Below, piece after piece: positions 1-15,971 of a stretch of DNA of 64,000 nucleotides. The notes beneath the pieces are model-generated. The model was not told where the DNA came from and made no database searches. It saw only the letters and a program-made list of their open reading frames with translations. Position 1 is the first letter of the stretch. Each line of letters begins with the position of its first letter. The stretch comes from Planctomycetota bacterium (GTDB lineage Bacteria; Planctomycetota; UBA1135; UBA2386), in NCBI GenBank assembly GCA_965223545.1, contig OZ245006.1, positions 1 to 64,000 on the forward strand, read 5' to 3'. Made by a program: the position numbers and the translations under genes.

Positions 1-1185
1 GGCAGCGGTCAGGCGCGGGTGACGATCAACGGGCGGGACCACTACCTCGGGGTCTACGGAACGCCGGAGTCGAAGGAGCGATACCGCAAGGTCCTCGCTC
101 AGCACCTCGGTCGGCGTCCGCGCACGCTAGCCGAGGTCCTCGAAGAGGGTGACGCGCACGAAGCGGTGACCGTCGAAGAGGTGCTCGCTGCCTTCTGGGA
201 GCACGCCAGTGCGGTCTACGTCTACGAGAAGACCGGCAGGCCGAAGCCCGAGCTGTCGAACGTGAAGCATGCGCTCCGCGTGGTGCGGAGCCTCTTCGGT
301 TCGCGCGGCACTCAGGAGCCGAACCTCTTGGCGATCAAGTTTGGTCCGCTCCGGCTCAAGCAGTGCCGGCAGGTCTTTGTCGAGGAAGGCCACACGAGGA
401 GCCACGTCAACGATCAGGTGGCTCGCATCCGGCGTCTGTTTCGGTGGGCTACCGAGAACGAGCTGGTTCCGCCCGCGGTGTTCCACGGTCTCCAGGCCGT
501 GCGTGGACTGCGCCGCGCCGAGGGTGGCGTGCGCGAGGGACGCAAGGTCGAGCCCGTGGCCATGCTGCACGTCGAGGCCGTGCTGCCACACGTCAGCCGA
601 CAGCTCGCCGCGGTGATTCAGCTCCAGCTCCTCACAGGCGCGAGGCCGGGAGAGATCCTCCAGATGCGACCGATGGACATCGACCGCGACGGTCCACACG
701 GGTGTTGGATCTACCGGCCGGCGAGCCACAAGACGGATCACCACGGCCACGACCGCGTCATCTTCATCGGCCCGAAGGGACAGGCAGTCCTCGGACCGTT
801 GCTCGACCGTGGCGAAAGCGCGTTCTGCTTCTCGCCGGCCGAAGCCGAGCGCGACCGGAACGACGCGAAGTCGGCGGCTCGGAAGTGCAAGCCGTCGCGG
901 ATCTACGACCCGAAGAGGCGCCGGAAGGCGAACCCGAAGCGGAAGCCGCAGGACTGCTACACCGTGGCCAGCTACCGGCGGGCCGTGGAGCGGGCGTGCG
1001 AGCGCGCGGGTGTGCCCCGTTGGACTCCGCACCAGCTCCGGCACTCCGCTGCCACTGGACTTCGCCGCGAGTTCGGCGTCGAGACCGCGCAGGTGACGCT
1101 GGGCCACCGGAGCCTCGACGTCACCGAAATCTACGCCGAGAGGGACCTGGACGCAGTCGCGCGCGCGATTGCAAAGGTGGGTTAG
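1..1185 (+). CDS. Tyrosine recombinase/integrase, 5' end cut by window edge
   Basis: Frame is open from base 1 (GSGQARVTINGRDHYLG). Catalytic motifs TGARPGE, HKT, HQLRH, LGH, TEIY. Confidence 0.93.
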   Translation, partial: GSGQARVTINGRDHYLGVYGTPESKERYRKVLAQHLGRRPRTLAEVLEEGDAHEAVTVEEVLAAFWEHASAVYVYEKTGRPKPELSNVKHALRVVRSLFGSRGTQEPNLLAIKFGPLRLKQCRQVFVEEGHTRSHVNDQVARIRRLFRWATENELVPPAVFHGLQAVRGLRRAEGGVREGRKVEPVAMLHVEAVLPHVSRQLAAVIQLQLLTGARPGEILQMRPMDIDRDGPHGCWIYRPASHKTDHHGHDRVIFIGPKGQAVLGPLLDRGESAFCFSPAEAERDRNDAKSAARKCKPSRIYDPKRRRKANPKRKPQDCYTVASYRRAVERACERAGVPRWTPHQLRHSAATGLRREFGVETAQVTLGHRSLDVTEIYAERDLDAVARAIAKVG

Positions 1186-1481
1186 AGACCAGCATCGTCG
1201 AGGATCCGCTTGGCGCGGTTGCGCGCCTTCTTCTTGGCTGCAGGGCCCGGCTGGGGCGACGGTCGCCCCGCCGCCTCGGTGCACGCCTCAACGAAGCGCT
1301 GCACAGCTTCGCGTGATGAGCACAGAACACCGCCGACCATGATGGTCTCCAACCGAACCCTGGCCGGTCCGACGCCCTTCTTGGCGTAGCGGTAGACCAC
1401 GGTGCGGTTGAGCTTGCCGGACGGCCACTGCTCGGCCAGCTCGGCGAGCGGGATGATCTGCTCGGTCCAGACGTCGATCAT
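1182..1481 (-). CDS. DUF1580-like small HTH protein (putative excisionase)
   Basis: 99 aa; pattern TVVYRYAKKGV...VRLETIMVGG..CSSREAVQRF; convergent with and overlapping the integrase stop. Confidence 0.75.
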   Translation of the reverse strand: MIDVWTEQIIPLAELAEQWPSGKLNRTVVYRYAKKGVGPARVRLETIMVGGVLCSSREAVQRFVEACTEAAGRPSPQPGPAAKKKARNRAKRILDDAGL

Positions 1482-2062
1482 CGCCGCCCCCTTGTCGATC
1501 GACAGAGGGGCCGACAGCGATCGGCGTGGACAAGTGGCAAGGCTGATGGGAACACGGGACCTCCGTTCGGGAAGCCGTCCGTCGACGAGTCAACGGACGC
1601 AGCGCACGGATGCCGATCCCCGCTGCTGTTGGTTGTGCTTCCTACCGCCCCTCCGCAGGGGTTTCGGGTCCCTTGGAGTCGTCGCGGGCAACGCGGCCAC
1701 CGTGGTCGCGGCGGGCCCGTTTCGACACCCTACTCGGTCGTGCTCAGCGCCTTTCGTCTATGTCCCGTCCCAGCGGGGTCCTGAGCGACGTTCCGCTGAG
1801 CCTGTCCGCGCCGCGCACGGCCGGCCAGATCGCCATCCTTCGCCGAGGCTTCGGCAGCAGCTCGGCGGGGTGACGGTTCGACCAAGGCTACCTCGTGCAC
1901 GGTGACCGTGTCGGCGATGGTCGCTGGTGGTCTCGGGTCGGGATTGCGGGGTTGCGCTGATGCGTTGGTTGCGCATCCTGCGCATGCCGGGGCATCGCAC
2001 AAGTCGTCCCAGAGGGTCGCAGGAGCGTTCTCGTAGAGGCTCCACGTAGCCGTCCTCCCGGG

Positions 2063-2632
2063 TTAGCCCGCTCTGGTCAGCAAGATCGACTCGACGTCCC
2101 CTTGGCCGATGTCTGCTGCTTGTCGGAGGTGCAGCTTGGTCTTCTTGATCGCTACCTGAAGCCCGGGCCTTGCCGTTCCTGCGACGATCGTCAGAGGGGC
2201 GAGCATGTAGAACCCGGAGGCCTTGAAGGCCTTCTTGAAGTTGCTGAGGTGAGGCGATCCTGGGGCGGGCTCCATTCGATGGTGTCGAGCGGTCAACAAG
2301 ACTTCTTGTGCATCGAGTTCGACGCCGTGAACTTGTGCTCTACGAACGGTGTTACCCGGCTCTGAGGTGACAAGGATCGAGTAGCCGGCGGGGGCGCCCG
2401 CAATGGGGCCTTCAACTATCGAAAGTCGTATCTCTTCAAACTGGTCAACCGCGCCAACGCGGTCTCGCCAGCCTTCGAAGATCGCAAGCCCTGCCGTAGC
2501 GTCGCGGAACTGCAGCGCAATCACGGGCGGAGCCGTGTTGTCAGGGTCGGTAAGATATGCAGTCCCATGCCATCCGGCGGCATCCCACCGAGGGGTATCG
2601 ATGAAAGACTGCACTAGCAACTCACGCCTCAT
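2063..2632 (-). CDS. Hypothetical cargo protein, about 189 aa
   Basis: ATG at 2632 preceded by GGAGGT; globular-looking sequence (FIDTPRWDAAGW...PPVIALQF); lower GC than flanks. Confidence 0.65.
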   Translation of the reverse strand: MRRELLVQSFIDTPRWDAAGWHGTAYLTDPDNTAPPVIALQFRDATAGLAIFEGWRDRVGAVDQFEEIRLSIVEGPIAGAPAGYSILVTSEPGNTVRRAQVHGVELDAQEVLLTARHHRMEPAPGSPHLSNFKKAFKASGFYMLAPLTIVAGTARPGLQVAIKKTKLHLRQAADIGQGDVESILLTRAG

Positions 2633-2765
2633 TCCTTGGCACCTCCAATCCTGTTGAAAGGGATGCCGGTGGGTATCGGTGAGCCGCAGCTTGCCGCTGA
2701 ACCAGAACGCGTGCACCAAATAGCTACGCTTCCTCAAGCCGGGCGTCGCGGCGGTCGAAATGGCT

Positions 2766-2785
2766 ACAGGTCTCATCAGACCTGT
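2766..2785. promoter_or_regulatory. Perfect 8-4-8 inverted repeat upstream of the second recombinase
   Basis: ACAGGTCT-catc-AGACCTGT between two divergent genes. Confidence 0.45.
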
Positions 2786-2813
2786 GACAAACGACCAACT
2801 CAGAGCCGACACC

Positions 2814-3410
2814 ATGACGAAGCTGCCAGTCGAGATCCTCACCCGTGACGAGGTCGGCGCGCTCATGCGCGCATGCAACCGCCGGTCGCCGTCCGGGCTC
2901 CGCGACCGCGCGTTGATCGCGCTGCTCTACGGTTCCGGACTACGGATCGCGGAGGCGTTGGCGCTGCGCCCGCGGGACGTCGACCTCGATGCCGGGACCG
3001 TGCGAGTGCATCGCGGCAAGGGTGGGAAGGCGAGGACCTCCGGAGTCGAGGAGGGCATGGCCGCGGTGGTCCGGGAGTGGATGGGCCTCAGAGCCGCGAG
3101 GTTGGCCCTCAACGGCTCCGTGCCGATCTTCTGTCAGATCACCCGCGGGAAGGTGGGGGAGCCGCTACAGCAAGCCTGTGTCCGTCAGATGCTCCGGCGT
3201 CGAGCGACCAAGGCAGGCATCGAGAAGAGGGTGCATGCGCACGGTCTTCGCCACAGCCACGCCGCGAACCTGGCGAGCGCCGCGATCCCGCTCAACGTGA
3301 TCCAGCGGCAGTTGGGGCACAGCAACGTCGCGACCACGTCGCGCTACATCGACCACGTGGCTCCCGCCGACGTGGTTGCCGCGGTGCGAGGTCTGGGCCG
3401 CGGCGCCTGA
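2814..3410 (+). CDS. Short tyrosine recombinase, catalytic domain only (FimB/resolvase-like size)
   Basis: 198 aa; GLRIAE, GKGGK, HGLRHS, LGHS, TSRY motifs; no N-terminal core-binding domain. Confidence 0.9.
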   Translation: MTKLPVEILTRDEVGALMRACNRRSPSGLRDRALIALLYGSGLRIAEALALRPRDVDLDAGTVRVHRGKGGKARTSGVEEGMAAVVREWMGLRAARLALNGSVPIFCQITRGKVGEPLQQACVRQMLRRRATKAGIEKRVHAHGLRHSHAANLASAAIPLNVIQRQLGHSNVATTSRYIDHVAPADVVAAVRGLGRGA

Positions 3411-3761
3411 GAGCGCCAGTGTGCGGCCCGGCACTCGGGTGCCCAATCGGACCTCGGGTGTTCCGGACGCCAGCAGGGGCGACCCTGCGGCTTCTGAGCA
3501 GGCGTGGCTTGCGTCGTCGACTGTGAGGTTGGTCCTGCCGCCGGCTCGTCTTCGCCGGGGAGAGCCAATTCCTCCGATAGTGTCGCCGATTGCGCGATCA
3601 CCATGGCTTGGCGGCCGGAGAGTGGGAGCCCCGAGCTATGCGGTAGTGCGTGCGCGAGCCATGGTGGTATCGGTCGGCTTCATTGCTCCGCCGGGGGTGG
3701 AGGCAGTGCACGTCTCTGCGGAGCATTGCACGGACCAGCGGCATAGGGATCTCGGTCCAAG

Positions 3762-4171
3762 ACTACCGGCCCACTCCATCTTACCCATACCATCGGGGCT
3801 GTAGATTGACCACGACGGCTCAGCGGGCCGGTAGTGGGACGCAGCGGGCCGGTAGTTCCGGCCCGGGTCAATCGACCATAGCAATGGAGGTTCCATACCA
3901 AGCCATGGCTTGGGACGCAACCGATCAAGTTCTCCCGCTGACCGTAGTGCATAGAGGTAGGGGGGGGAGGGAGGGTATAGGGTGGTGGCATCCCAGTTCT
4001 CTGACTTACTTCTACTTCTGTCCCAAGAGGGTAGTAGTAAGAGGAAGTGTCAATAGCATCGGTGGTTTGGGCGGGCCGGAACTACTGTCCCACTACCGGC
4101 CCGCTCCCGTCTAGGAATCGTCCGCATCTCCTATGGTAAGGGCGTGATAGAGCGGGCCGGACTTCCGGCCC
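3762..4171. repeat. Iteron-like repeat field (GGGCCGG[TAGT] in both orientations), putative replication origin
   Basis: Eight GGGCCGG/CCGGCCC cores near 3766, 3825, 3846, 3858, 4073, 4096, 4154, 4165. AGCGGGCCGGTAGTGGGAC (3822-3840) recurs inverted at 4087-4105. Palindrome CCAAGCCATGGCTTGG at 3898-3913. Confidence 0.65.
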
Positions 4172-4362
4172 ACATGCGAGTAGAGGCCGTAGACCGCTCC
4201 TATTCGCGATTTCTGCTCGCACGGCCTCCTTGCCAAGCAACCACGTAGTAGCCTTCGGAGCTGGGAGCCGTTGGGTTGATCTCCGACGGTGGGGCATCCG
4301 CCCTCGCCCCGACCCAGCACCGTTTCCACCTGGGGGCGGTGTGCAGCGAGAAGGAGGGCGAG

Positions 4363-5286
4363 ATGGACAGCACGACGACGACGCCGAGCAAGCGAGTTCG
4401 GCAGGCGATGGCACGATGCGATCGAGAGGCGGACCTCGGCGTCGACCGGCTGCCGGAGTGGTGCGTTCTGCAGGAGGCCCACTCCGACTCGGTAGTCGAG
4501 GCGTGCCGCCAGCTCATCGCGGAGGTTGGACGACTGTCCGCGCCCGAGTTCTTCTGGGCGCGCTTTCTCGATGAGTCCACGGTCGATCTGGACCGGCTGA
4601 AGGTAGTCGCCACGACCGCGCGAGACGCGGTCAAGCCTCTGCTGGCTGCCCACCATGGCAGCCGTGAGTTTGCGGTCCCCGGGCGCGTCGCCGGCTCTGC
4701 TTTCGAGGCGGTCGGCATCCTGGCGAACGAGATTCTGCGGTCGATGGCGTCGTGGGAGCCCGATGAGGTGGAGTTCGACCCTGAGCCAGACCCTGCCGCG
4801 GGCGAGCAGCTCCCGTGCCGGTTCCTCCCTCGTGTCGATGGCGTTGATGCTGACGTGCTGATGGAGATCTACCGGGCGTGCTGTGCTGTCGCTGGGCCTG
4901 CGTCGGCAACGTCGAAAAGTGCTTCCGCAAGCCGCGAAAGGCAGTCGGTCGCGGAACCGGTCTGGAGCGACTTCGATGGGAGTTGCTTCGCGAGTCCGTT
5001 GGCCGCGATGATCGGGCTGGCGCTGACAGGATCGGGAGCGGATCTGCGCTCGGGGCCCGCGATCGTTGACGCGATCGAGCGCAGGCATCGAGAGACCGAC
5101 TTTGCCCTCTTCTACGGGCGCTGCACCGTGTCTGCGAACACTGTGCGTCCCATGACTACGAAGATGCGCGAGGAAGGGCTGCTGACGGGGTCCGCCAACC
5201 AGCAGAAGCGGCAGTTGACCGAGCGTGGCATAGCTCTGGTCGATGCGGCCGTGCAGCGGCTCCGAGAGCCGTCTACTGGCGACTGA
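4363..5286 (+). CDS. Hypothetical protein with probable C-terminal winged HTH
   Basis: ATG 4363 after AAGGAGG; C-terminus VSANTVRPMTTKMREEGLL...RQLTERG looks like a wHTH. Confidence 0.6.
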   Translation: MDSTTTTPSKRVRQAMARCDREADLGVDRLPEWCVLQEAHSDSVVEACRQLIAEVGRLSAPEFFWARFLDESTVDLDRLKVVATTARDAVKPLLAAHHGSREFAVPGRVAGSAFEAVGILANEILRSMASWEPDEVEFDPEPDPAAGEQLPCRFLPRVDGVDADVLMEIYRACCAVAGPASATSKSASASRERQSVAEPVWSDFDGSCFASPLAAMIGLALTGSGADLRSGPAIVDAIERRHRETDFALFYGRCTVSANTVRPMTTKMREEGLLTGSANQQKRQLTERGIALVDAAVQRLREPSTGD

Positions 5287-5387
5287 GCAGCCCGCGAGGG
5301 CAAGAAGGTAATCCGCCAGCTCACCTGCTTGCCCTCCTTGGTTGGTGTGTTCTTCGAGGTAGTGAGTTTCACCTCGGAGCAAACGCA

Positions 5388-5741
5388 ATGACCAGCGCAG
5401 ATATCGGCCCGCGAGCCGGCGAAGAGCTGCACGAGATCAACGCCGAGTTCGCCGAGCTGGTCAGCCAGCAACTCGGCTTCCCCGTTACCCTCTCAACCCT
5501 CAGATACGGATACCGTCGAGGCACCGCGACACCGCAGGGCCGTGTGCGTCTCGGCGTGCTCAAGTTCGGTCGAACCGTGGTCAGTTCTGTCAAGGCGGTG
5601 CGGCGGTGGGCCGGGGCGGTGGCAGCCGCGAGCGCGTTCGACGGGATCGAGGTCACCACGGCCAGCGATGATTCCGCTCGGTCGAGCACGGCCCGCGTCA
5701 GGCAGGCCGAGGAAGTGCTGCGCGCTGAGGGGCTCCTGTGA
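5388..5741 (+). CDS. Second DUF1580-like HTH protein
   Basis: STLRYGYRRG...RVRLGVLKFGRTVVSSVKAVRRW...EEVLRAEGL parallels the 1182-1481 protein. Confidence 0.65.
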   Translation: MTSADIGPRAGEELHEINAEFAELVSQQLGFPVTLSTLRYGYRRGTATPQGRVRLGVLKFGRTVVSSVKAVRRWAGAVAAASAFDGIEVTTASDDSARSSTARVRQAEEVLRAEGLL

Positions 5742-8428
5742 CCTTCAACATCCTAACCACCCCCGACGTCCGCCAAAGGGGGATCGGAAGCATGCAAGAG
5801 GCCGGAGAGGTCTCGCAACGCTTCGCTGTCGAGCCTGTCGATTCCTTGTTTGGAAAGGCCTGGGCCGATGATCGACACTTCGTCGGCTACAGGCTGCACG
5901 GCAAGGACGGCGAGGAGCTGGCACAGGACGAGCAGCCCCGCCTGCGCAAGAGCGTGCGCGGGGAGATCGAGCAGGCTGGTGGCGCGGTGCGCTGCTGGGG
6001 CTTCGTCGGCGACTACGACCTGAACGAGAACGTGCCGGACTCCGTGCTCACCGCGGCAGGGTGGAACGGTGAAGGCAAGCGGCCGAAGATCGCGTGGACC
6101 CAGGAGCTGCTGGACCAGTTCACCACCAAGCTCGAGGGCGTAGTTGAGTCCCTGCGAGCCAGAGACCTTGGCCCGGGCTACATCTACCTGACCAACCACG
6201 GCGCGCGCTTCGTTCACTTCTACAGCACCGACCTCGATCCGCAGCAGCACGAGGAAGTCACCGGCGGAATGATCGGGCTCTACGCCGAGCTGGGCGTGGT
6301 GCTCGACGACGCGTGCGTCGACTGGACCCGCATGTTCCGCGCGCCGCGTGTGCGTCGACGCGTGGGCGGGACCGACATCGACACGGGCGACCAGCAGTGG
6401 TTCAAGGATTGGCACTACCGCAACTGCTGGACGATCCCTGCGCTGGCCCCGCGCACCTCGCGCCTCGCTGACAGCTACGCGCACGTCTCCGAGTATGTCG
6501 GCGACCGCCCGTCGGCCGAGGAGTGCCTCGACCTGCTGGTGGAGGATCCTGCCACCGGACGCCCGACCGAGACCTCCAAGAATTTGAAGCGGCTGTTCAA
6601 GCGCAAAGGCTTGGATCTTCTGATGGACATCCTTGTTGGCAAGATCGTCACCCTGCCTGAGGGCGGCCGAGACAGCACCTTGACCAGCCTCACCGGGCAG
6701 CTCGCGGTCCACATCTACGAGCAGGACTGGGCCAGCCCAGAGCTGATGTATGCCGTGCTCCTGCCCGTGCTTGAGCAGCTGGAGCCGGACCAGGGCACAC
6801 CCGACTGGTTCGACAAGTGCTGGCAGCTATGCAAGGGCATGTGGACGAAGGAGATGTCCAAGGCCAAGGCCAAGACGCTCGAGAAGGAGCAAGAGGAGGA
6901 GCGCAACCTCTCGAAGCTGGACCACCTACTCGAGTGCGTGCGCCGCCTCTACCCGAAGAACGCACTGCTGCAAGGCGACGACCACGTGGCGCTGGTGGAG
7001 CTATCGCGCATGGGCATGGTCAAGTCCGGCCCCACCATCTACGTGCTGCGCAGGGACGGCTACTACGACCCGCAGCCCTGCTCGACCGCCGTGCTGCCGG
7101 GCAAGGTGATCGACCTGGGCATGGAGTTCCTCATGCCCACCGAGATCAAGGGCGTGTTGCTCAAGGGATCAGAGATGCTGATGCAGTATGGGCGTGAGGT
7201 GTCGAAGGTGGAGGGCTCTGCGGCAGCGACGGCGGGGTCTCTGCGCGATGGAGCCCTTGTCGTGCCTTGCTATCAACGACGGCAGATACCTCGTCGGTTC
7301 AGGCGACGTGTCCACCGGTGGCTTAGAAAGATGCTTGGCTCGAAGTGGAGCCTTGTATGTCTTTGGATTGGGGAAGCTCTGGCCTTCGACGAGCTGAGAC
7401 CGCTGCCGTTGCTGCTGTTGGTTGGCGAGTCCGGTTCCGGCAAATCGCTGATCGTGGCGGGCATGGCCGACGCGACGGACGCGCGGAAGGCAGCAGATGG
7501 CCGGCGGGCACTTCGCAGGTTCAACGCCGTTCTTCTCGGGACGCCCTTCATTCACTTCGACGAGGACATCCCACGGCTGGCACGCGAGGACGGATCGACG
7601 ACAGAGCTGCTCCGCTCATTTGTTGGCGGTAGCCCGAGGAGGGCGATCGAGCGCAAGGGGCGCGAGGCCGAGACCCTAGAAGCGCACCCTCGGTTCGTTG
7701 CCACGATGAACTCCCAGCAGCGCGCCCTTTCTCAGCTGCTCGGTGACGGGGACCTGAGTCGCGACGACGTGGAAGCGATTGCGAACAGGGTCTTGGCTGT
7801 CGACATCGTCACTGGCACAGCCGCGTGGCTCAGTCTGCAGGCGGAGCGTAGCAGTCGGCCCTACACCGACAAGTGGCTCGAAGACGACTCGCTGGCGCAG
7901 CACTTTCTCTGGTGCTACGAGAACCGGGACCTGCTGCGAGCCAGACTGGAAGCCCGCGGTGAGCTACCAGCAAGCTCGAAGCATGGCCGGCTACTGCTGC
8001 CGTCAAACGCCCACGGCTTGTTGCGTCTGCGGGATGCCGACGATGCCGTTCCTGACCTCCTTGTCCGAAACGCAGCGGAGCTGTTCATCGGGGAGCCTGC
8101 GAGCCAGCTGAGCCGTGGCGCGGGTGCTGCGTTCCGTCAGGGGAGGAAGCTCTTCTTCTGCATCAAGCCGCTCGTCGAGCAGGTTGGGTCGTTGCTCGGC
8201 CCCACGCGCCGGGAACGAATGCAGGCCATCGACAGGATCTGCGTCGGCAGCGCGCCTGACAACCCATGGCGTCCTGCTCCCGGTGCGAGGAAAGCCCGTT
8301 GGCGGCAGCTGGACTCCGACCTGGTGATTCAGGTGCTGCGGGGCCGTGGTTTCGAGGATCTGGCCGACTCGCTGGAGCGGGTGTCAGAGACGCATGGTCC
8401 TCGGGCCATGGGCGGAGGCGCGGCATGA
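5738..8428 (+). CDS. Primase-polymerase (AEP-like) + PriCT-like + SF3/DUF5906-type helicase
   Basis: N-terminal GDYD, YLTNHGARF and DWTRMFRAPRV motifs; EGGRDSTL (PriCT-like); Walker A GESGSGKS, Walker B FIHFDE, IERKG and ATMN (motif C). Confidence 0.78.
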   Translation: MTFNILTTPDVRQRGIGSMQEAGEVSQRFAVEPVDSLFGKAWADDRHFVGYRLHGKDGEELAQDEQPRLRKSVRGEIEQAGGAVRCWGFVGDYDLNENVPDSVLTAAGWNGEGKRPKIAWTQELLDQFTTKLEGVVESLRARDLGPGYIYLTNHGARFVHFYSTDLDPQQHEEVTGGMIGLYAELGVVLDDACVDWTRMFRAPRVRRRVGGTDIDTGDQQWFKDWHYRNCWTIPALAPRTSRLADSYAHVSEYVGDRPSAEECLDLLVEDPATGRPTETSKNLKRLFKRKGLDLLMDILVGKIVTLPEGGRDSTLTSLTGQLAVHIYEQDWASPELMYAVLLPVLEQLEPDQGTPDWFDKCWQLCKGMWTKEMSKAKAKTLEKEQEEERNLSKLDHLLECVRRLYPKNALLQGDDHVALVELSRMGMVKSGPTIYVLRRDGYYDPQPCSTAVLPGKVIDLGMEFLMPTEIKGVLLKGSEMLMQYGREVSKVEGSAAATAGSLRDGALVVPCYQRRQIPRRFRRRVHRWLRKMLGSKWSLVCLWIGEALAFDELRPLPLLLLVGESGSGKSLIVAGMADATDARKAADGRRALRRFNAVLLGTPFIHFDEDIPRLAREDGSTTELLRSFVGGSPRRAIERKGREAETLEAHPRFVATMNSQQRALSQLLGDGDLSRDDVEAIANRVLAVDIVTGTAAWLSLQAERSSRPYTDKWLEDDSLAQHFLWCYENRDLLRARLEARGELPASSKHGRLLLPSNAHGLLRLRDADDAVPDLLVRNAAELFIGEPASQLSRGAGAAFRQGRKLFFCIKPLVEQVGSLLGPTRRERMQAIDRICVGSAPDNPWRPAPGARKARWRQLDSDLVIQVLRGRGFEDLADSLERVSETHGPRAMGGGAA

Positions 8429-8715
8429 TCACCGACAAAGAGCTGGTCGAACTGGCAGTCAGCCTGTTGCTGGCCACCCACCCGCATGATGACGCGGGCG
8501 CCCCCAAGCCGGGCAGCCTGGAGTGGCAGCACGCCGTTCAGGTGGTCGTCGGCCACCTGGCTTGGATGCGGGACAACGGCGTGCCGTTGCCGCCGGTGAT
8601 CGTCGCCGATGAGCAAGCGCGTGCGGCGTCCGCATGGTTGCTGGAGAAGTGTCGGCAGGACGCGCAGGCCAGAGTTGTCGAGGCCGCGGAGCGCGCGGCG
8701 AAGGAGGGGCAGTGA
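8425..8715 (+). CDS. Hypothetical protein
   Basis: ATGA overlap with the primase stop; GGAGG RBS; 96 aa. Confidence 0.6.
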   Translation: MITDKELVELAVSLLLATHPHDDAGAPKPGSLEWQHAVQVVVGHLAWMRDNGVPLPPVIVADEQARAASAWLLEKCRQDAQARVVEAAERAAKEGQ

Positions 8716-9179
8716 TGCGTGGTATGACACCAGAAGAAGCGTGTCGCGAGATATCACGGCGTGGGCAACCAGTGCCGTCGTCCTGCCCCTACGAGCTTGG
8801 CAGCCTCATCGCTGAGACGCTCGAAGGACTATTGAAGCCCCTACCAGTGGACGAGAGACGCCAGCGTTTCCAAGAAGGCAACCAGTGGTTGCAGGATGCG
8901 TTCTTCGCACTGCGCCCTTCGCGGCGACCGAGGAACGAACTGGAGATGCTGGATCTCTACTCCTTCATCTCCGCATGCGCGATGGATCATCAAGTGGCGG
9001 ACGTTGGCGCGTTCAGCCTCGACGGCCACGAAGACGTAGACGGCCGCTACGAGCGTGCGGCCAAAGAGCGCCACCTGCGACTCGGCTTGTTCGTTGCCGA
9101 GGACTGGTGGTTCGGGGCAGGAATGAAGGCGGCACGGCGGCGGCACGACCTCCTCGCTGACGAGAGGTATTCACCATGA
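8715..9179 (+). CDS. Hypothetical protein
   Basis: Coupled to both neighbours; AAGGAGG RBS. Confidence 0.6.
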   Translation: MRGMTPEEACREISRRGQPVPSSCPYELGSLIAETLEGLLKPLPVDERRQRFQEGNQWLQDAFFALRPSRRPRNELEMLDLYSFISACAMDHQVADVGAFSLDGHEDVDGRYERAAKERHLRLGLFVAEDWWFGAGMKAARRRHDLLADERYSP

Positions 9180-9805
9180 CCGCGCTCGCAACCAACGACC
9201 TCCATCCGGTCGAGGCGCGCAACTCCTTGGTCGAGTCCAACATTCCTCTGGCACGCTGGGTGGCCCGTCAACACGTCCACCAAGCCCGTGGAATCGTCGA
9301 CCTCGATGATCTCCAGCAGGCAGCCATGGTCGGACTGATCCGCGCAGCCGAGCTGTTCGACGCCAACCGCGGCACGACGTTCGCGACCTACGCGGTGCAC
9401 TGGTGCCGGCAGGCCGTCCGGCGAACGATCGCTAACCAGGGCCGCACCATTCGGGTCCCGGCGCACCTCGTCAGGGTTCCGGAGGCTGGTGAGGAGCTTA
9501 CCCCGCGGCAACGGGCAGCCGAGGCCGCGAATCGCACGGCCTCGCTCACCGCGGTCGGTGACGACGCGAGGGCTGTGGCTGATCCGCGGCCCAGCCCGCA
9601 TGACCTGGCTGCCCAGGAAGACGAGGTTGAGTGGATCCGATCTCGTGTCAATGCATTGCCGGCCGACCTCGCCGATGTCGTGCGCGGCAGGTTCGGTCTG
9701 GGGCGTCACCCCGAGACTCTGAAGGCCATCGGTCACCGTGCCGGCATCAGCCGTGAGCACGCGGGGCGCCGGCTGGCGAGCGCGTTGGAGGCGCTGCGAC
9801 GATGA
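9176..9805 (+). CDS. Sigma-70 family RNA polymerase sigma factor (RpoD/RpoS-like regions 2 and 4, compact)
   Basis: LVESNIPLA, DLQQAAMVGLIRAAELFD.NRGTTFATYA.HW, RTIRVP, and region 4 RFGL...TLKAIG...ISRE. Confidence 0.9.
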   Translation: MTALATNDLHPVEARNSLVESNIPLARWVARQHVHQARGIVDLDDLQQAAMVGLIRAAELFDANRGTTFATYAVHWCRQAVRRTIANQGRTIRVPAHLVRVPEAGEELTPRQRAAEAANRTASLTAVGDDARAVADPRPSPHDLAAQEDEVEWIRSRVNALPADLADVVRGRFGLGRHPETLKAIGHRAGISREHAGRRLASALEALRR

Positions 9806-10353
9806 CCGACCAACCGATCAAGAAGTCGGCCGGCGATCGCCGCAAGAAGGTGGATCCCGAGCAGGCGTTCAAGCTGTGGGCGGCCCTCGGCCCGACCCGC
9901 ACCTACAGCGAGGTCGCCCGTGAGATGGGTTGCGAAGACTCCACCATCCTCCGCATGGCGCGGCGCATGGCGTGGGACAAGCGGCTGGCCCGCATCGAGG
10001 CACCGCAGCGCGAGCAGGACGAGGACGAACTGCGGCAGCTCGTCCAGGAGATGAACGCTCGACACATCGAGGTCGCTCGGGTGCTGGTCACGAAGGGTAT
10101 CGAAGCGCTCCAGTATCTGGAGCCGACGTCGGTGGCGGAGGCGCTTCGGTTGGTCGAGACCGGCGCCAAGCTGGAGCGCCAAGCCAGAGGCGAGCCGGAC
10201 AGCAAGAAGCAGATCACCGTCGAGGCGATTCTGCGCGAGCGCTTCAAGGAGCTGGTGGTCGAGCCAGCCGACCAGCCGGCACGGCCACGCATCACCGTGG
10301 TCGATGTGCCGGACCTCGACGACGACGGCCAGCAGGAGGTCGGAGATGAGTGA
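9802..10353 (+). CDS. Putative terminase small subunit
   Basis: N-terminal HTH (AF..W..LGPTRTYSEVARE...W.KR), helical middle, directly upstream of and overlapping TerL. Confidence 0.7.
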   Translation: MTDQPIKKSAGDRRKKVDPEQAFKLWAALGPTRTYSEVAREMGCEDSTILRMARRMAWDKRLARIEAPQREQDEDELRQLVQEMNARHIEVARVLVTKGIEALQYLEPTSVAEALRLVETGAKLERQARGEPDSKKQITVEAILRERFKELVVEPADQPARPRITVVDVPDLDDDGQQEVGDE

Positions 10354-11761
10354 ACCGACGTTCAAGCGGGCAACGGTCAACAAGGCCGCGCTCTTCGCGA
10401 AGGCTGGCTACGAGCCGCACCCTGGCCAGCAGGCCATCCACGACGCCGGGCCACACGATGCCGGCGGCTTCCGGTATCGAACCGTCTCCTGCGGTGTGCG
10501 GTTCGGCAAGACGCATGCGGCTGCCTGGGAGATGGCGGCTGCCGCGCTCGCCCCCAACACCCACGAGTTCGAGGGCTGGTGTGTCGCACCCCTGCATTCC
10601 CTGGCGGACCGGTCGTTCCGCATGGTGGCCAGCATCTTCCAGAACCACTTCCCCGAGCACATCGTCTCCTTCAAGGAGACCGATGGTGAGTTGGTCATCA
10701 TCAACCTCGCTGGGGTCAAGGCGCGCATCCTGCGCCGGACAACTGAGCGCGGCAAGGTGGCGCTCACCGGTGCGTCCGTGGACGCCATGGTGATCGACGA
10801 GGCGTCTGCCGTGCCGGACGACATCTGGGAGTCGGCCCTGTCGACTCGACTGCTCGACCGACTGGGTTGGGTGCTGGCGATCAGCAGCCCACGAGGCACC
10901 ACTGGCTGGTGGGCGCAAATGCTCCGCGCCGGCTTGCGCGGGGACGACCCGCAAGTGTGGGCCGTCAAGCTGCCTACCTGGGTGAACCCGCGGGTGTCCA
11001 GGGAGGAGATCCGGAAGATCCGGGCTCGACTCCCGGAGCACATCTTCCAGCAGGAGTATGGCGGCGAGCTGGTCGCAGCCGCCGGCTCGGTCTTCGACCA
11101 GGCGGCCATCGAGGCGTGCGCGCGGGTCACTGCATGGGAGGATCCTGTCCCTGGTGAGATCTACGTGGCTGGCCTCGACATCGCGATGTCCACCGACTTC
11201 ACCGTGCTGACCGTCGGTCGCCAGCTCGACAACGGCAACTGCCGCGTCGCCTACGCCAAGGCGTGGCGCCGACTCCCGTGGGAGGGGCAGGTCCGTCAAG
11301 TGGGCAGGATCCTGCGGCACTACGGTGAGGCCCAGGTCCGCGTGGACGAGACCGGCCTCGGCAAGCCGGTGGTCGAGTCGATGCGCTCCTCTCAGCTGTT
11401 CGACGGTGGTGTGCGCGGTGAGGTCTTCACGGCTCAGAGCAAGAACGCCATGGCGCGCAACCTGCAGGTCATGCTGGAGCGCAAGCGGGTGTTGCTGCCG
11501 GTGCGTGAGCTGTGCCCCGACATGCACGACCAGCTGGAGAAGTTCGCCTACCTCGACGATGGCCCCAGCGTCGGCAGCCTCCGCAAGATGGGAGCGCCGA
11601 AGGGCGAGCACGACGACTACGTGGCCTCGCTGATGCTGCTCGGCATGTTCTTCCGGGGTGGCGGTGGCGCCGGCATGCGCTTCGCGCGACGCGAGGAGCG
11701 AAGCATCAGCATGGACTCCTACAGCCCCCGTAACCCCCTCGGAATCAGGTTCAACCAATGA
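10346..11761 (+). CDS. Terminase large subunit
   Basis: PHPGQ, GVRFGKT (Walker A), VIDEA (Walker B), ISSPRG, FQQEY; nuclease motifs GLDIA, VDETGLG, HDDYV. Confidence 0.92.
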   Translation: MSEPTFKRATVNKAALFAKAGYEPHPGQQAIHDAGPHDAGGFRYRTVSCGVRFGKTHAAAWEMAAAALAPNTHEFEGWCVAPLHSLADRSFRMVASIFQNHFPEHIVSFKETDGELVIINLAGVKARILRRTTERGKVALTGASVDAMVIDEASAVPDDIWESALSTRLLDRLGWVLAISSPRGTTGWWAQMLRAGLRGDDPQVWAVKLPTWVNPRVSREEIRKIRARLPEHIFQQEYGGELVAAAGSVFDQAAIEACARVTAWEDPVPGEIYVAGLDIAMSTDFTVLTVGRQLDNGNCRVAYAKAWRRLPWEGQVRQVGRILRHYGEAQVRVDETGLGKPVVESMRSSQLFDGGVRGEVFTAQSKNAMARNLQVMLERKRVLLPVRELCPDMHDQLEKFAYLDDGPSVGSLRKMGAPKGEHDDYVASLMLLGMFFRGGGGAGMRFARREERSISMDSYSPRNPLGIRFNQ

Positions 11762-12060
11762 GCGGCTGCCCCTACTACGTTTCCAACGGCATGTCCGTTC
11801 TCTTGCGCAAGCGCGGCAGCACCGTGAAGCGCCAGTTCGTCGAGCGGCAGGAGATCCCGGCCGAGTTCCTCCCCGAGCCCGACAAGCTGCAGACCATGGT
11901 CGATGCCGGCACCCTGGTGACCGTGTGTCCCGACGAGCCACCTCCGCCGACACCCGGTCGTCGGCCGAGGGATCCGGTGTCGTTGGACCACCTCACACCG
12001 CAGATGCGCGGCATCGTGAGGCGTATGGGCATGTGGCCGCTGTTCGGTGGCGGCGAGTAG
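11758..12060 (+). CDS. Small hypothetical phage-type protein
   Basis: ATGA overlap with TerL stop; similar codon bias. Confidence 0.55.
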   Translation: MSGCPYYVSNGMSVLLRKRGSTVKRQFVERQEIPAEFLPEPDKLQTMVDAGTLVTVCPDEPPPPTPGRRPRDPVSLDHLTPQMRGIVRRMGMWPLFGGGE

Positions 12061-12281
12061 GACGGCCTGTGCGCCTCTCTGCGGCCTTCGGATCGGAGAC
12101 GTGCCTGGAGTCATTTGACGATGCCAGAGGCCGTCAGGAGGCAGCAGGGGCCTTGGAGGCGGACTCGGGGTCAACTTGTTGTGCGGCAGTTCGCAACGAC
12201 TTGCGACTTCGCACGACGAGATCGCGATGCAAGATCCCATACTACTAGGGGTGGGCGCCGAGCGGTGCGACCGACGACGAG

Positions 12282-13424
12282 ATGGGCAAATCGATTCCTG
12301 CGATGGTGAAGCCGGAGCTGCTCCGATGGGCAAGGGAGTCCATCGGGCTTGATGTCTCCGCGGCCGCGCACAAGCTGGGGATCGACGAGGCGAAGCTGCT
12401 CGCGTGTGAGGAAGGAAGGGACCGCCTCACGATGGCGAAGCTCGAAAGGGCTGCCGACGTTGTCTACCGGAGGCCGCTCGCGGTCTTCTTCCTCCCCGCG
12501 CCCCCTGAAGAGTTTCAGGTCGTCAAGGACTTCCGCCGGCTCCCCGGGGCTCCCTCGGCCCCGTCACCCGAGCTGACTGTCGAGCTTCGCAAGGCGGGCG
12601 CCCGTCGCGCGATCGCCCTGGAGATGCTGGACGAGCTGGGGGAGGCGGCTCCGAACTTCGACCTGCGCGCGTCTCGGAAGGAGGCCGCCCAGGCCGCGGC
12701 GGCTCGTGTCCGAGCGGCCCTCGGGATCTCCGTCGAGGAGCAACTCGATTGGCGAGACGCCTACGTGGCATACCGGACGTGGCGTGCGGCGGTCGAGGAG
12801 CACGGCGTGCTCGTGTTCCAGATCACGGGCGTCCCGGTCAACCAGACCCGCGGCTTCTCGACATTCTATGAAGAGCTTCCCGTGATCGCGGTGAACGGGA
12901 AGGACGCGCCGACGGCCCGCTGCTTCACGTTGATGCACGAGCTGGGGCACCTCTTGCGCCGAGGGGGATCCGTCTGCAACTGGAGTGAACGCGACGCCGA
13001 GGAAGTCTGGTGCAACCGCTTCGCGGGTGAACTGCTGGTCCCATCTGAGGCGCTCCGCGCCGAGGTCGTCGACCTCATACACCACGACGAGTGGCCGGAT
13101 CCTGTCCTGACGAGACTTTCGAGGCGCTTCGGCGTAAGCCCCGAGGTCATCGTGCGCCGGCTGGTGACGATTCGGCGAGCGACGCAGGACTTCTACCAGC
13201 GGTGGCGAGACGAACGCGGCGATGAATCTCCACCGGCCGGCGGCGGGCCCGTGCCCGTCTCGAAACGCGTGGTCGCGCACGCCGGCAGCACCTTCGTCAG
13301 CCTCGTGCTCTCCGCCTACCACGCGGACCGGATCACGGCGAGCACCCTCTCGAACTACCTCGGCGCGAAGCTCAAGCACTTGCCGGCGATCGAGGCGCTG
13401 ATGATCGGGGGGGATGCCGGATGA
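12282..13424 (+). CDS. XRE-HTH + ImmA/IrrE (COG2856) Zn metallopeptidase
   Basis: N-terminal LRWARES.GL HTH; FTLMHELGH (HExxH); EVWCNRFAGELL. Confidence 0.92.
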   Translation: MGKSIPAMVKPELLRWARESIGLDVSAAAHKLGIDEAKLLACEEGRDRLTMAKLERAADVVYRRPLAVFFLPAPPEEFQVVKDFRRLPGAPSAPSPELTVELRKAGARRAIALEMLDELGEAAPNFDLRASRKEAAQAAAARVRAALGISVEEQLDWRDAYVAYRTWRAAVEEHGVLVFQITGVPVNQTRGFSTFYEELPVIAVNGKDAPTARCFTLMHELGHLLRRGGSVCNWSERDAEEVWCNRFAGELLVPSEALRAEVVDLIHHDEWPDPVLTRLSRRFGVSPEVIVRRLVTIRRATQDFYQRWRDERGDESPPAGGGPVPVSKRVVAHAGSTFVSLVLSAYHADRITASTLSNYLGAKLKHLPAIEALMIGGDAG

Positions 13425-13891
13425 CTTCGACCTCGTATTGCCTGGACACAAGCGCGCTGATCCACGCCGCCGTCCGGGCATACCCGATGGATGTCTTCGG
13501 CTCGTTCTGGACGCGACTCGGTGACCTAATCGCGGACGGCCGCGCTTTCGCGCCGAAGGAGGTCCAGAGGGAGATCAAGCAGCAGGACGATGAGCTACAC
13601 GGCTGGTGCAAGGAGAAGAACGGGCTCTTCGTTCCGCCGGAGGTCGAGATTCAGGCGGCGATGTCGGCCGTGACGGAGCAGTTCCCGAGCTTGGTCGACC
13701 AGACGAAGGGGCGCGGACTAGCAGACCCGTGGGTGGTCGCGACCGCGCAGGTGTCGAGCGCGACCGTGGTTACGCAGGAGTTCTCGAAACCGACCAAGCC
13801 GCGGATTCCGGATGCGTGCCGCGTCTTGGAGATCCCGTGCGTCAACCTGCTCGAGCTGATCCGGGCGGAGCGCTGGACGTGGAATGCCTGA
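13421..13891 (+). CDS. PIN-fold DUF4411-like protein (putative RNase toxin)
   Basis: YCLDTSALI, EV..EI, ADPWVVA.A, VVTQE, IPDAC; ATGA-coupled to the peptidase. Confidence 0.85.
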   Translation: MTSTSYCLDTSALIHAAVRAYPMDVFGSFWTRLGDLIADGRAFAPKEVQREIKQQDDELHGWCKEKNGLFVPPEVEIQAAMSAVTEQFPSLVDQTKGRGLADPWVVATAQVSSATVVTQEFSKPTKPRIPDACRVLEIPCVNLLELIRAERWTWNA

Positions 13892-14735
13892 TGCTCCCGG
13901 AGGCGAGGCGATGACGTCAGCAGAACTCGACGCAGCCAAGGGGAGGGTTGTTAGGAAGGTCTTCGTCGACACAGCGGACGACAACTACGTCGGTGCTCGG
14001 TGGTGCTTCTACCACGGGCTCAGCGTCGACTTTCACTGGCTAGCGGTCCACGCCCTGGAGAAGTATCTGAAGGCCGTGTTGCTGCTGAACGACAAGTCGG
14101 CGAAGGGCTACGGGCACAACATTGAACGCCTCTACTGCGAGGTGCACCCGCTGGCCTTTGACCTGTTACCGAAGGTGCTGGAGCAGTCGAGCAGCCTGGA
14201 CACCAAGGGATGGCACGACGAGGAGCCGGAGCGGTTCCTGAGGCGCCTCTATGCGAAGGGCGAGGCGAACAACCGCTACGACCTGTTCGGCTTTGTGCAG
14301 ATGAGGCACGACCTCTTCAAGCTCGATCAGATGGTCTTCGCCGTTCGCCGCCTCTGCCGTCCGCTCGACGCCATGTTCTTCCCTGGAAGGCCGGAGCAAG
14401 GAACCAACCGAGAGGTGTTGAACAAGCAACCGGAGTGGTGGTCGCTCCGCACGACGGGGAAGCTGGAGAAGACCGTCCACGGGAAACGAGGATCGGAGCT
14501 GCGGCGCGTGCTACTCAACTGCAACCCCTTGCTCGCTCCCGATGACTTCGAGCACGAGCCGGTGCGAAGCAGCACGAGCGCCTCGAACTCAATACTCGGG
14601 AAGGAGATCGTGAAGCCGTTGAAGGGCCCGGCGGGCCAGTCGCAAGAGGTGGCGCTCGACCTGCGTGAGTGGGTGCTGAACAAGATCAAGCTCCCGCCTG
14701 ATGTTCAGAAGGAGCTTCGAGACGCAGGTCCGTGA
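13884..14735 (+). CDS. HEPN-like domain protein (alternative start 13911)
   Basis: ADDNYVGAR...HALEKYLKAVLL...GHNIERLY...NRY pattern. Confidence 0.7.
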   Translation: MPDAPGGEAMTSAELDAAKGRVVRKVFVDTADDNYVGARWCFYHGLSVDFHWLAVHALEKYLKAVLLLNDKSAKGYGHNIERLYCEVHPLAFDLLPKVLEQSSSLDTKGWHDEEPERFLRRLYAKGEANNRYDLFGFVQMRHDLFKLDQMVFAVRRLCRPLDAMFFPGRPEQGTNREVLNKQPEWWSLRTTGKLEKTVHGKRGSELRRVLLNCNPLLAPDDFEHEPVRSSTSASNSILGKEIVKPLKGPAGQSQEVALDLREWVLNKIKLPPDVQKELRDAGP

Positions 14736-14978
14736 CGAGCCGTGGGTGGTGTTCTTGGGAAGTCCGTGGGTCGTCTCGGCGCTGGCCCACCACCGACCGC
14801 TGCGTGCGTTGCGCAGACTACCCGGACTACCCAAAACGCTCCCGCCTACCCCCGATTCGCAAGGACTTACGACGACGTGGAGCGACTGCCAACGACGCAG
14901 TTGACTCGCCGGCCGATGGTCGTATCCTCCGGTGGCCAGGGTAGATTAGAACGACGCAACTTGCTGCCAGGAAGTAGC

Positions 14979-15023
14979 TTCGGGACGCAGAGGTCGCTGG
15001 TTCAAATCCAGTCGCCCCGACCA
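14979..15023 (+). pseudogene. 3' half of tRNA-Pro(CGG), attachment-site duplication
   Basis: TTCGGGA anticodon loop + CGCAG-AGGTC-GCTGGTTCAAATCCAGT-CGCCCCG-ACCA. No D-arm or 5' acceptor/anticodon strand upstream. Confidence 0.88.
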
Positions 15024-15107
15024 GCTTCTGCTGCTTTGCAGCAGAAGCTGATCGGGGCGGCTGGATTTGGACGCGCTCCGAGCTTCGCTCCGAGCGCGTT
15101 CAAATCC
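15001..15107. repeat. Overlapping inverted repeats complementary to the tRNA 3' end
   Basis: 34-bp arms 15001-15034 / 15038-15071 (3 mismatches); second stem 15063-15078 / 15092-15107. Confidence 0.8.
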
Positions 15108-15127
15108 GCGTGGGCTTGGGGGCGTGA

Positions 15128-15527
15128 TGAGCCTCCGGCGCCTCGAATCTTCGAGCTTCGACAACATTCTCGAGGCGACGTCGCCGACATGGCAACGTCG
15201 CCGCCGCGCCGGAGGCTCGGAGAGACAGTGCCTCCTGGCTCAGCGCGGCGGCGGATGGGTCGGACCTTCCAAGCCGCTCCGGGAAGAGCGGCATCCGAGT
15301 TTGGTTGCGGCCGTGGCCGCGCTGAGCCTCGGGGTCCGAGAATGTTCGAGCGGCAACAACCTTTCGGAAGGCCCGTCGTCGCCGGGACTTCGATACCGCA
15401 ACTCCCGGGGGCTCGAAGACAACACTGGCGTCTGGGCTCAGCGCGGCCGCCGGCGACCGCCGGACCCGCGACCGACGCTCGGGTCGCGGAATGCTCCGTG
15501 TTTGGTTGCGGCCTCGGCTGCGCTGAG
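15128..15527. repeat. Two degenerate ~200-bp tandem units with internal palindromes (REP/MITE-like)
   Basis: TGAGCCTC..GAAT.TTCGAGC at 15128 and 15323; GGCTCAGCGCGGC at 15237 and 15435; GTTTGGTTGCGGCC..GGC.GCGCTGAG at 15299 and 15500. Confidence 0.65.
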
Positions 15528-15539
15528 TGGTCAGTGCTG

Positions 15540-15833
15540 TTACGGGCGGGGTGGGCGCGAGCCTGGGACTGAGTTCACGATCCGCTGCAGCGCGGCGGCA
15601 GCCCGTGCGCGTGCGGGGCCGCGCACGTCGTCGGTTGCCGCCATTGGGAAGACGAAGCGGTCCTCGCAGTGCTCAGGGCCGCGGCTGCCCTGGATGTAGC
15701 CTTCGCGCACTTCGTGCTCGATGCCTGCCGCGTGGAACGCGTGGCGCATCTTCGGTGCGAGCCATCGCGGCACGTCCACCCAGATGGGGATGGCATCGTT
15801 GCCCAGGCGCGTCGCACCCCGACCGGGGTTCAC
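15540..15833 (-). CDS. Hypothetical protein
   Basis: Plausible composition; no recognisable motif. Confidence 0.35.
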   Translation of the reverse strand: MNPGRGATRLGNDAIPIWVDVPRWLAPKMRHAFHAAGIEHEVREGYIQGSRGPEHCEDRFVFPMAATDDVRGPARARAAAALQRIVNSVPGSRPPRP

Positions 15834-15971
15834 GCGGATGCCCTCTCAGGGCCACCATTGGAGGTCGGTCGTTGGTTGCATCGGTGGTGTGGAGGCGAGT
15901 GGCAGGGGTCTTTCGTCCCGCCAGAGTTGGTTTGCGACGAGACCGCGGTACTCATCCGCGAGCCGCGGAGT

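Follow-up and report, generated by a model that had tools for sequence, protein, structure and literature searches.

The DNA analyzed here, hereafter the window, comprises the first 64 kb of contig C1 (8.07 Mb; OZ245006.1), which together with a sole further contig, C2 (39.6 kb), makes up the assembly of a planctomycetal bacterium (GCA_965223545.1). The window opens with an integrated element that encodes both subunits of a phage-type packaging motor, the small terminase subunit TerS (9802-10353, + strand) and the large subunit TerL (10346-11761, + strand), and in which none of the 16 open reading frames (ORFs) matches a portal, capsid, protease, or tail family of PHROGs. It is almost certainly a real, intact, and mobile element belonging to a recurring family, and not a decayed prophage. 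With a probability somewhat better than even, it is a satellite that fills the proheads of a helper phage by means of its own motor. A sequence-only reading of this DNA had described a ~15-kb element integrated at tRNA-Pro that carries TerS and TerL and lacks portal, capsid, protease, and tail genes, and each of these points is borne out below. The chances are evenly balanced for the broader proposal of a widespread, unnamed class of satellites that would steal empty proheads, keep TerS-TerL, and drop portal, capsid, and tail, the variable C-terminal tail of TerL matching the portal of the helper and the TerL of one subfamily having become, with a zinc ribbon in place of the nuclease, an ATPase that serves a second purpose in packaging or in interference.

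Boundaries of the element and the search for head genes

An intact tRNA-Pro(CGG) gene with attL lies at the opposite end of C1 (C1:8065485-8065561), where it is the last tRNA, 141 bp from the contig end. The 46-bp att core, an exact duplicate of the 3′ part of this tRNA, recurs as attR at window 14979-15024 (+ strand). The chromosome wraps round, base 1 of the window joining the far end of C1, and the element is fully bounded, with a size of ~15.2 kb and a GC content of 65.7% as compared with 69.7% for the chromosome. Its tyrosine integrase (1-1185, + strand; Pfam PF00589, 1e-13; phrog_1, 9e-31) starts 30 bp before the end of C1 (from C1:8065673), its first ten codons reading in frame across the join into base 1. 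An integrase paralog at another tRNA-Pro has five extra residues at the position of the contig join, and in two contigs from public sequencing runs the stretch from att core to base 1 measures 155 letters, as compared with 140 in the assembly; 15 bases, and nothing else, are therefore missing at the join. Head or tail genes, which the sequence-only reading had considered as possibly hidden left of base 1, are absent from that side, which holds just the tRNA-Pro and ~155 bp. Short repeats inside both ends of the element (14816-14832, + strand, with matching copies at the left end, C1:8065625-8065642) may represent the arm sites of the integrase. Immediately around attR, a 35-bp inverted repeat (91%; 15000-15072) has the end of the att core as its left arm, so that tRNA 3′ sequence is mirrored outside attR. 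Further out (15120-15527) lie two copies of a ~200-bp repeat resembling a miniature inverted-repeat transposable element or a repetitive extragenic palindrome, which is present at well over 100 places in C1. Elsewhere in C1 (2352500-2352936), a truncated related integrase adjoins tRNA-Pro(GGG) and is followed by a TPR-repeat-like cargo gene.

The element is not an isolated case. Within the class, 48 of 339 genomes contain a match to the window TerL at E 1e-10, and 41 of these reach 1e-30, with at most four matches per genome; among 401 genomes drawn from the phylum, 15 have one at E 1e-100. Absences in such single-query searches carry little weight, since one of them missed a prophage TerL of the host that was later found by profile. 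A scan of genome contigs, in line with the search for relatives that the sequence-only reading had proposed, yielded 57 related loci, mostly from Planctomycetota and none of them a full prophage; this set overlaps the 48 genomes, so that the counts are not additive, its genes were called by an in-house gene caller, and many of its loci are short contigs. In the usual plan, a ParB-methylase and the terS-terL pair are accompanied by XerC-like genes (one or two), a primase or helicase of variable type, a SpoVG-like gene, and either a helix-turn-helix (HTH) protein with a tyrosine integrase or a DUF2924 protein with a serine recombinase. Among the 57 loci, terS is found in 51, the ParB-methylase in 45, a tyrosine recombinase in 41, the primase/helicase cluster in 27, and a serine recombinase in 13; terL is full in 50, of which 34 include at least 5 kb downstream. 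The window element forms a side branch in which a sigma factor replaces the ParB-methylase. Its two nearest relatives (TerL identity 78% and 56-57%) share the HTH gene before the primase, and the nearer one also has primase, sigma factor, and a 100-aa ORF in common with it. Beyond the 57, four loci with att repeats at spans of 12.3-19.8 kb likewise contain no head gene. Two further elements are bounded by att repeats, namely those of G298 (12.9 kb; 39 bp, tRNA-Leu) and G076 (12.3 kb; 34 bp, tRNA-Met), and the 19.8-kb element of G142 lies between two complete tRNA-Gly copies. G067 and G078 offer short and doubtful repeats only, and trusted att repeats are absent from the other 15 of 20 regions examined. 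The G298 repeat corresponds to the 5′ part of the tRNA-Leu and not to its 3′ part (G142 and G298 loci, L032/L033 and L034/L035). Several element copies may occur in one genome at different sites. As side features, a single terS may be followed by a tandem of full terL genes, two in number, and five elements lie on one contig (L133, L136, L138, L139, L143, L145); some elements (L140, L151, L272) have a DNA polymerase of family A at the position of the replication gene.

Portal and capsid families were not detected among the genome-locus ORFs of these relatives in PHROG scans of 55 cluster representatives, 112 further ORFs of 200-1500 aa, and 34 more; the sole portal in these scans belongs to the viral contig L181. 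In the genome loci, structural labels appeared sporadically on proteins whose Pfam or co-hits point to other identities, namely a metallo-beta-lactamase fold (labeled 'tail protein'), a protease of HtrA type, a secretin, and a protease of Clp type (E 4e-5). When 111 loci (1.75 Mb) were searched by tblastn with 52 portal and capsid queries, only two weak 72-aa matches at E 8e-4 came up. In a control set of first large downstream ORFs beside distant (24-33% identical) TerL relatives, 45 of 69 (72 ORFs minus three near-duplicates) match portal families and four more match a head-tail adaptor. Neither a prophage head/tail module nor decaying remnants of one are present in the scans of the element or its relatives. 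Within the element itself, the sigma factor produced a lone 'head protein' PHROG match of E 0.03 over 23 residues.

That the element is a capsid-forming satellite, with a capsid and a portal so divergent that the profiles fail to recognize them, is scarcely credible. Such proteins might be sought in two ORFs without assignment, of 271 and 307 aa. The latter (4363-5286, + strand; 336 aa from an upstream TTG) is the only unassigned operon-strand ORF of capsid size, and its predicted model, all-helical with a mean predicted local distance difference test score (pLDDT) of 39, is too poor for a fold decision. It has a single full-length homolog among 1.84 billion representatives, and its neighbors in the Atlas are winged-helix clusters at 0.83, which is a lead only; the protein is probably a regulator. 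Moreover, a family of ORFs as large as a portal or capsid does not recur among the 57 loci, and the elements of G298 and G076 leave little room for one. As to the fold check called for by the sequence-only reading, profile scans revealed no capsid or portal, and the models of two ORFs (pLDDT 39 and 54) are too poor to decide.

Conservation and descent of the terminase pair

The identification of both subunits is straightforward, with TerS matching phrog_6299 (3e-11) and TerL matching Terminase_6N, Terminase_6C, and phrog_2 (7e-33). The closest solved terminase is the TerL of the Thermus phages P74-26/G20c (PDB 4ZNI, 5M1F), with profile matches of E 7e-44 for the ATPase and 6e-29 for the nuclease and an identity of 27%. 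The catalytic residues R52, K55, D151/E152, R168, D278, D334, and D423/D424 are kept, and across 60 element TerLs there is hardly any variation in the Walker A lysine, in Walker B and motif III, or in the nuclease acids. The element TerL thus has the Walker A/B motifs, motif III, and all three nuclease acids by which a functional terminase of the headful type is recognized.

The terS-terL pair is conserved and under purifying selection. The ratio of nonsynonymous to synonymous substitution rates (dN/dS) of terL is 0.15 between the window element and its closest relative (L124), and it lies below 0.5 in all 279 usable pairs, the rest of the 319 computed having been set aside because their synonymous changes were few or close to saturation. 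The median amounts to 0.094 (0.044-0.28) for 23 close pairs, a figure that is weakened by the fact that these pairs are not independent, 20 of them stemming from one record; the check on terL proposed by the sequence-only reading thus came out in favor of a maintained gene. For terS, dN/dS amounts to 0.28 against L124, with a median of 0.08 in 12 family pairs.

All element TerLs fall together with those of a group of phages into one branch (Shimodaira-Hasegawa-like approximate likelihood ratio test 99), and these phages are sister to the side branch of the window (100). The group is exemplified by G339, a 49.7-kb viral record (89% complete) with portal, lambda-E-like capsid, tail tube, and tape measure, whose TerL lies within the element clade and has the same catalytic-residue state as the element TerLs. 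Monophyly of the element TerLs is rejected by the approximately unbiased (AU) test (p 0.009), which was carried out with a quick tree without mixture model, on a group named after the first tree and on 37 rows chosen from 208. As the element TerLs do not form one clade and the phages are sister to the side branch of the window, the terminase module appears to have been passed between phages and elements more than once. In the phages G339, L181, L074, L312, and L289-L302, the closest phage relatives of the window TerL, the portal gene is oriented against terL and the capsid operon and is separated from both.

These data bear on the alternative retained by the sequence-only reading, a prophage reduced by deletion in which terS and terL are relics. 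A gene set of phage origin and the scattering of the element TerLs over more than one clade would be expected in this case, a frameshifted terL does exist in one relative (L171), and the archaeal element NitKor-E1 has been read in this manner (PMC6563490). Against this, the same loss would have had to occur in dozens of divergent loci with no remnant of a head gene, under strong purifying selection on what remains, in elements of 12-20 kb with exact att repeats and with several copies per genome at different sites. Reduction by deletion is highly improbable and close to excluded.

Proposed packaging into helper proheads and competing explanations

The favored reading, a satellite with its own motor, can be laid out as a sequence of steps. 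A helper phage would turn lytic, upon which the element would excise and its primase-helicase would replicate the element DNA to concatemers. TerS and TerL would be expressed, in this element probably through its own sigma factor; TerS would mark a pac site of the element, and TerL would cut there and dock on the helper portal by its C-terminal part, much as the lambda TerL docks on its portal by the C-terminal domain (PMC9026076). Headful packaging into helper proheads would follow, with two to five 15-kb copies per normal-sized head because no capsid-size gene is evident, and helper tails and lysis would complete the particle. The motor is lacking in most satellites (10.1101/2024.04.22.590561). 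A TerL of its own would free the element from the TerS-TerL specificity of the helper, leaving portal fit as the sole remaining constraint.

Candidate helpers are the G339-like phages, with their sister TerL, and the two complete phages of the assembly. One of the latter is C2 itself, a complete 39.6-kb tailed phage with terminal overlap (L266, L267), which is linked to the present host by co-binning only. It encodes TerS, TerL, a portal fused to an F-like domain, a protease, an HK97 capsid, tail proteins, and a RecE/RecT-like pair; an integrase was not seen on it. Its TerS belongs to the same family as the element TerS (24% identity), and its TerL is unrelated, with no significant match. The other is an intact-looking 77.5-kb prophage at tRNA-Asn (C1:7775442-7852941; 45-bp att repeat; L270, L287, L288) with portal, scaffold, capsid, tail, and a TerL that falls into the same broad family as the element TerL (24%); its portal and its head-morphogenesis gene are separated by small inserted ORFs. 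No telling DNA match exists between the element and either resident phage, so that mimicry of a pac site was not seen, and a crude repeat scan found no CRISPR array in C1, hence no spacer link to C2.

Indications of activity come from sequencing depth, taken from four of 12 listed runs and not to be equated with copy number. In run X4, a 15,194-bp contig covers positions 1-15008 without mismatch at a depth of 43, the flank contig having 9.6 (up to 4.5-fold), and in run X3, which like X4 may stem from the source study, the element has 35-43 and the flank 24-28. Runs X5-X11 contain small shares of the element, X5 and X6 scattered pieces only, and no RNA dataset containing the element is listed. 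The excess fits excision and replication or extra hosts. A joint of 15024 to 1 in reads was considered as proof of a circle and rejected because attL, which carries the same core, predicts it alone (the sides are 29-31 letters long).

Several observations weigh against the proposed packaging by the element's own motor. The excess in depth could mean that the flank is held by only some of the cells. Both phages of the assembly have distant or unrelated TerLs, so the fit to their portals is not obvious, and several carriers have no detectable resident helper among the three or four profile families searched: phrog_12 is without match in G145, G192, G142, and G298, and phrog_145 or phrog_10 in G145, G192, G076, and G078, some of these genomes being 67-89% complete. 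Close matches among viral contigs are phages only, with no element among them. Furthermore, 12 TerLs in nine of 69 loci (L179, L271-L277, L281) keep the ATPase and have the nuclease replaced by a CxxC..CxxC zinc-ribbon-like domain, a proportion that is no frequency since eight of the 12 added loci were chosen for their short matches. These proteins are truncated at the boundary between ATPase and nuclease, terS lies upstream wherever visible, and tandem copies occur, with two of them in L274 and three in L271. Such forms would be unable to package on their own if cutting and docking reside in the C-terminal half. Finally, the P-loop R39 and the finger R139 of P74-26 TerL are required for hydrolysis or cleavage (10.1101/080440), and their equivalents are non-arginine in 60 of 60 element TerLs (V51 and T141 in the window). 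The idea of a dead motor that might be built on this last point is weakened because portal-linked phage TerLs lose these arginines too, the R139 equivalent being missing in 20 and the R39 equivalent in five of 48 (a label list that includes adaptor-only loci), and because arginines are kept with the spacing known from D6E. By that spacing, R52 and R168 would be the equivalents of the cis R44 and trans R158 of D6E TerL (PMC5727402). R168 is present in all 60 element TerLs and in four of the five phages without arginine at position 51, and R52 in all 60 bar one gap.

The nuclease-less forms, which retain ATPase and terS, and the tandem terL copies of several loci would agree with TerS and TerL serving as an interference module that poisons the motor or proheads of the helper or cuts its concatemers, the element itself traveling by the helper terminase or by transduction. 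Defence-like cargo adjoins the terminase genes, the two arginines of P74-26 are missing, and the satellites termed PLEs block packaging by binding the phage TerL (10.1101/2024.04.22.590561), all of which would suit a poison. A decoy, however, need not keep all nuclease acids under strong selection, a genuine phage (G339) uses the same residue state, and neither subunit has a PADLOC match; interference is therefore regarded as unlikely, although clearly the first among the rivals to own-motor packaging. A hybrid motor, in which the element terminase recognizes and cuts its own concatemer and then passes the end to the helper TerL or co-assembles with it, would explain both a tolerance of distant helpers and the loss of the P74-26-type arginines. 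The retention of R52 and R168 argues against a hand-over of this type, which also leaves the nuclease-less forms unexplained, and its probability is put at a low value, although it ranks with interference as a main rival. Only slightly lower is that of a use outside any capsid, with the terminase serving to translocate or process DNA in another route (vesicles, cell contact, or copy resolution). The carriers without detectable portal or capsid families, the exchange of nuclease for zinc ribbon, and viral contigs in which no element was found would agree with such a function; no partner channel gene recurs among the elements, terminases were known only from viruses according to PMC6563490, and TerS, the factor of packaging specificity, is kept under selection.

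Remaining genes, known systems, and implications

The gene list of the sequence-only reading (integrase, primase-helicase, sigma factor, 100-aa ORF, cargo) is confirmed as far as it went; it had missed a XerC-like recombinase, a repeat cluster, the arm repeats, and the start of the integrase across the join. Of its excisionase-like HTH proteins, one is supported by profiles, the DUF1580 protein at 1182-1481 (- strand; PF07618, 4.5e-6; phrog_66 excisionase, E 0.03), and the other, a small HTH-like protein before the primase (5388-5741, + strand) that occupies the same position in the two closest relatives, has no family match and may be excisionase-like. An ORF at 2063-2878 (- strand), the true start of which is probably internal, has no match in Pfam, PHROG, or PADLOC and is likely cargo. 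The XerC-like tyrosine recombinase (2760/2814-3410, + strand; PF00589, 1.4e-40) consists of the catalytic domain only and may act in multimer resolution. An 11-bp repeat, present five times and in both orientations, surrounds a lower-GC core (GC 0.53 at 4001-4100). All five matches in the 64-kb window, as compared with 0.86 expected, lie within 3762-4171, and five were reached in none of 100 shuffles. The iteron-like cluster is a candidate replication origin, presumably comparable to those of Staphylococcus aureus pathogenicity islands (SaPIs). Rfam matches are absent from positions 1-16500.

The operon continues on the + strand with the primase-helicase, a replication protein (5738-8428; DUF5906, 8e-8; weak PriCT_1 and AAA; homolog in the closest relative), two small ORFs of 96 and 155 aa without family match (8425-9179), and, directly before terS, the Sigma70-family factor (9176-9805; Sigma70_r2, 4.8e-14; r4, 9e-8; homolog in the closest relative), a putative late-gene activator. 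Coupled to terL is the 100-aa ORF (11758-12060), which is 48% identical over 50 aa to that of L124 and finds no homologs in a wider search. A faint likeness to small genes after phage capsid genes (pairwise E 7e-4 to one, picked by eye) raised the idea of a counterpart of lambda gpFI, reportedly a packaging chaperone. Neither phmmer nor a hidden Markov model of 14 sequences returned a match, HHalign gave probabilities of 3% and 9%, and the model (pLDDT 54) has no Foldseek match at E 0.001, a best Z of 2.9, and an Atlas score of 0.78, so that the idea stands as an unproven lead. The cargo, likewise on the + strand, comprises an HTH-ImmA/IrrE-type peptidase (12282-13424; PF06114, 8e-22; PADLOC RmrA, 2e-19), a DUF4411 PIN protein (13421-13891; PF14367, 2e-40; no PADLOC match), the two forming what looks like a toxin-antitoxin or defence-like pair, and a possible HEPN-domain protein (13884-14735; Pfam HEPN at E 0.046 only, no PADLOC match).

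The element is PICI-like in plan, and yet its gene content appears to place it outside every satellite family tested; the statement of the sequence-only reading that it fits no defined class holds against the published definitions of phage-inducible chromosomal islands (PICIs), capsid-forming PICIs (cf-PICIs), tycheposons, VEIMEs, PLEs, and EPIPs. With PICIs/SaPIs (PMC10085698) it shares a size of ~10-20 kb, integrase, regulator, primase-replicase, small terminase, cargo, and the lack of virion genes. PICIs carry terS, terL being specific to cf-PICIs (PMC10085698), whereas the present element has TerL and a sigma factor (a ParB-methylase in most relatives); AlpA, MerR, or Stl regulators and capsid-morphogenesis genes found no match in general Pfam and PHROGs scans of it. 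In contrast, cf-PICIs (PMC10085698; 10.1101/2022.09.08.507074) have, as here, their own TerS and TerL, but encode capsid and head-tail joining proteins and steal tails only; family matches to their head genes (capsid, portal, protease, head-tail joining) were not detected in the element, nor were portal or capsid families in the genome loci of its relatives. The PICI-like tycheposons (10.1101/2020.12.28.424599) and VEIMEs (PMC9618062) share tRNA targeting, integrase, excisionase, primase/helicase, and tyrosine or serine recombinase variants, and are set apart by description: they are described as carrying terS or else a capsid gene, TerL is expected to come from the helper in the case of VEIMEs, and 'terL' is absent from the main texts of both papers. 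PLEs of Vibrio cholerae (10.1101/2024.04.22.590561) and EPIPs (PMC12822802) depend on helper virion parts; the former are without TerL and manipulate that of the phage, and the latter list terS, head-tail, and tape-measure genes and no TerL. The closest printed case, and the one precedent, is NitKor-E1, a cryptic integrated element of Ca. Nitrosopumilus koreensis AR1 (PMC6563490), which when compared by gene plan also has terS directly before terL, a tyrosine integrase, toxin-antitoxin/defence cargo, and no other head-tail gene. It is a single archaeal case judged a probable relic, as opposed to a bacterial family with a replication module and purifying selection. No published description of terS-terL elements of this kind was found in a search of largely open-access literature that left supplements outside, so that the element tables of PMC10085698 and PMC9618062 could list variants; the accessible part of 10.1101/2025.02.15.638363 contains nothing on them. 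Among plasmids, a 13.8-kb linear cyanobacterial one (L329, NC_014535.1) encodes TerL, a telomere resolvase, and a tyrosine recombinase, with none of nine scanned ORFs matching portal or capsid, and two cyanobacterial plasmids of similar size also match TerL. A 15.9-kb circular Rhodococcus 'plasmid' (L330, NZ_CP025962.1) has an integrase, a terminase, and a tape-measure gene, with no annotated capsid or portal.

Satellite families are distinguished by what they steal, and a type that owns the motor and steals the shell is not among the published families compared. If the proposed lifestyle is correct, such elements would be the missing counterpart to PICIs, which steal motor and shell, and to cf-PICIs, which steal tails only. 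It would then follow that a terminase can operate in nature on a portal not its own, portal specificity could be mapped on dozens of naturally occurring TerL variants, and the relic reading of NitKor-E1 would become a testable lifestyle. Current detectors would file an element of this kind as a broken prophage, and since a lone terL is a common virus marker, these elements may mislead virus counts. Experiments are feasible because the carrier of locus L137, which is titled Rohdeia mirabilis Pla163, is in culture. Own-motor packaging would also give Planctomycetota a route of gene transfer; within the class, a strong match occurs in 41 of 339 genomes.

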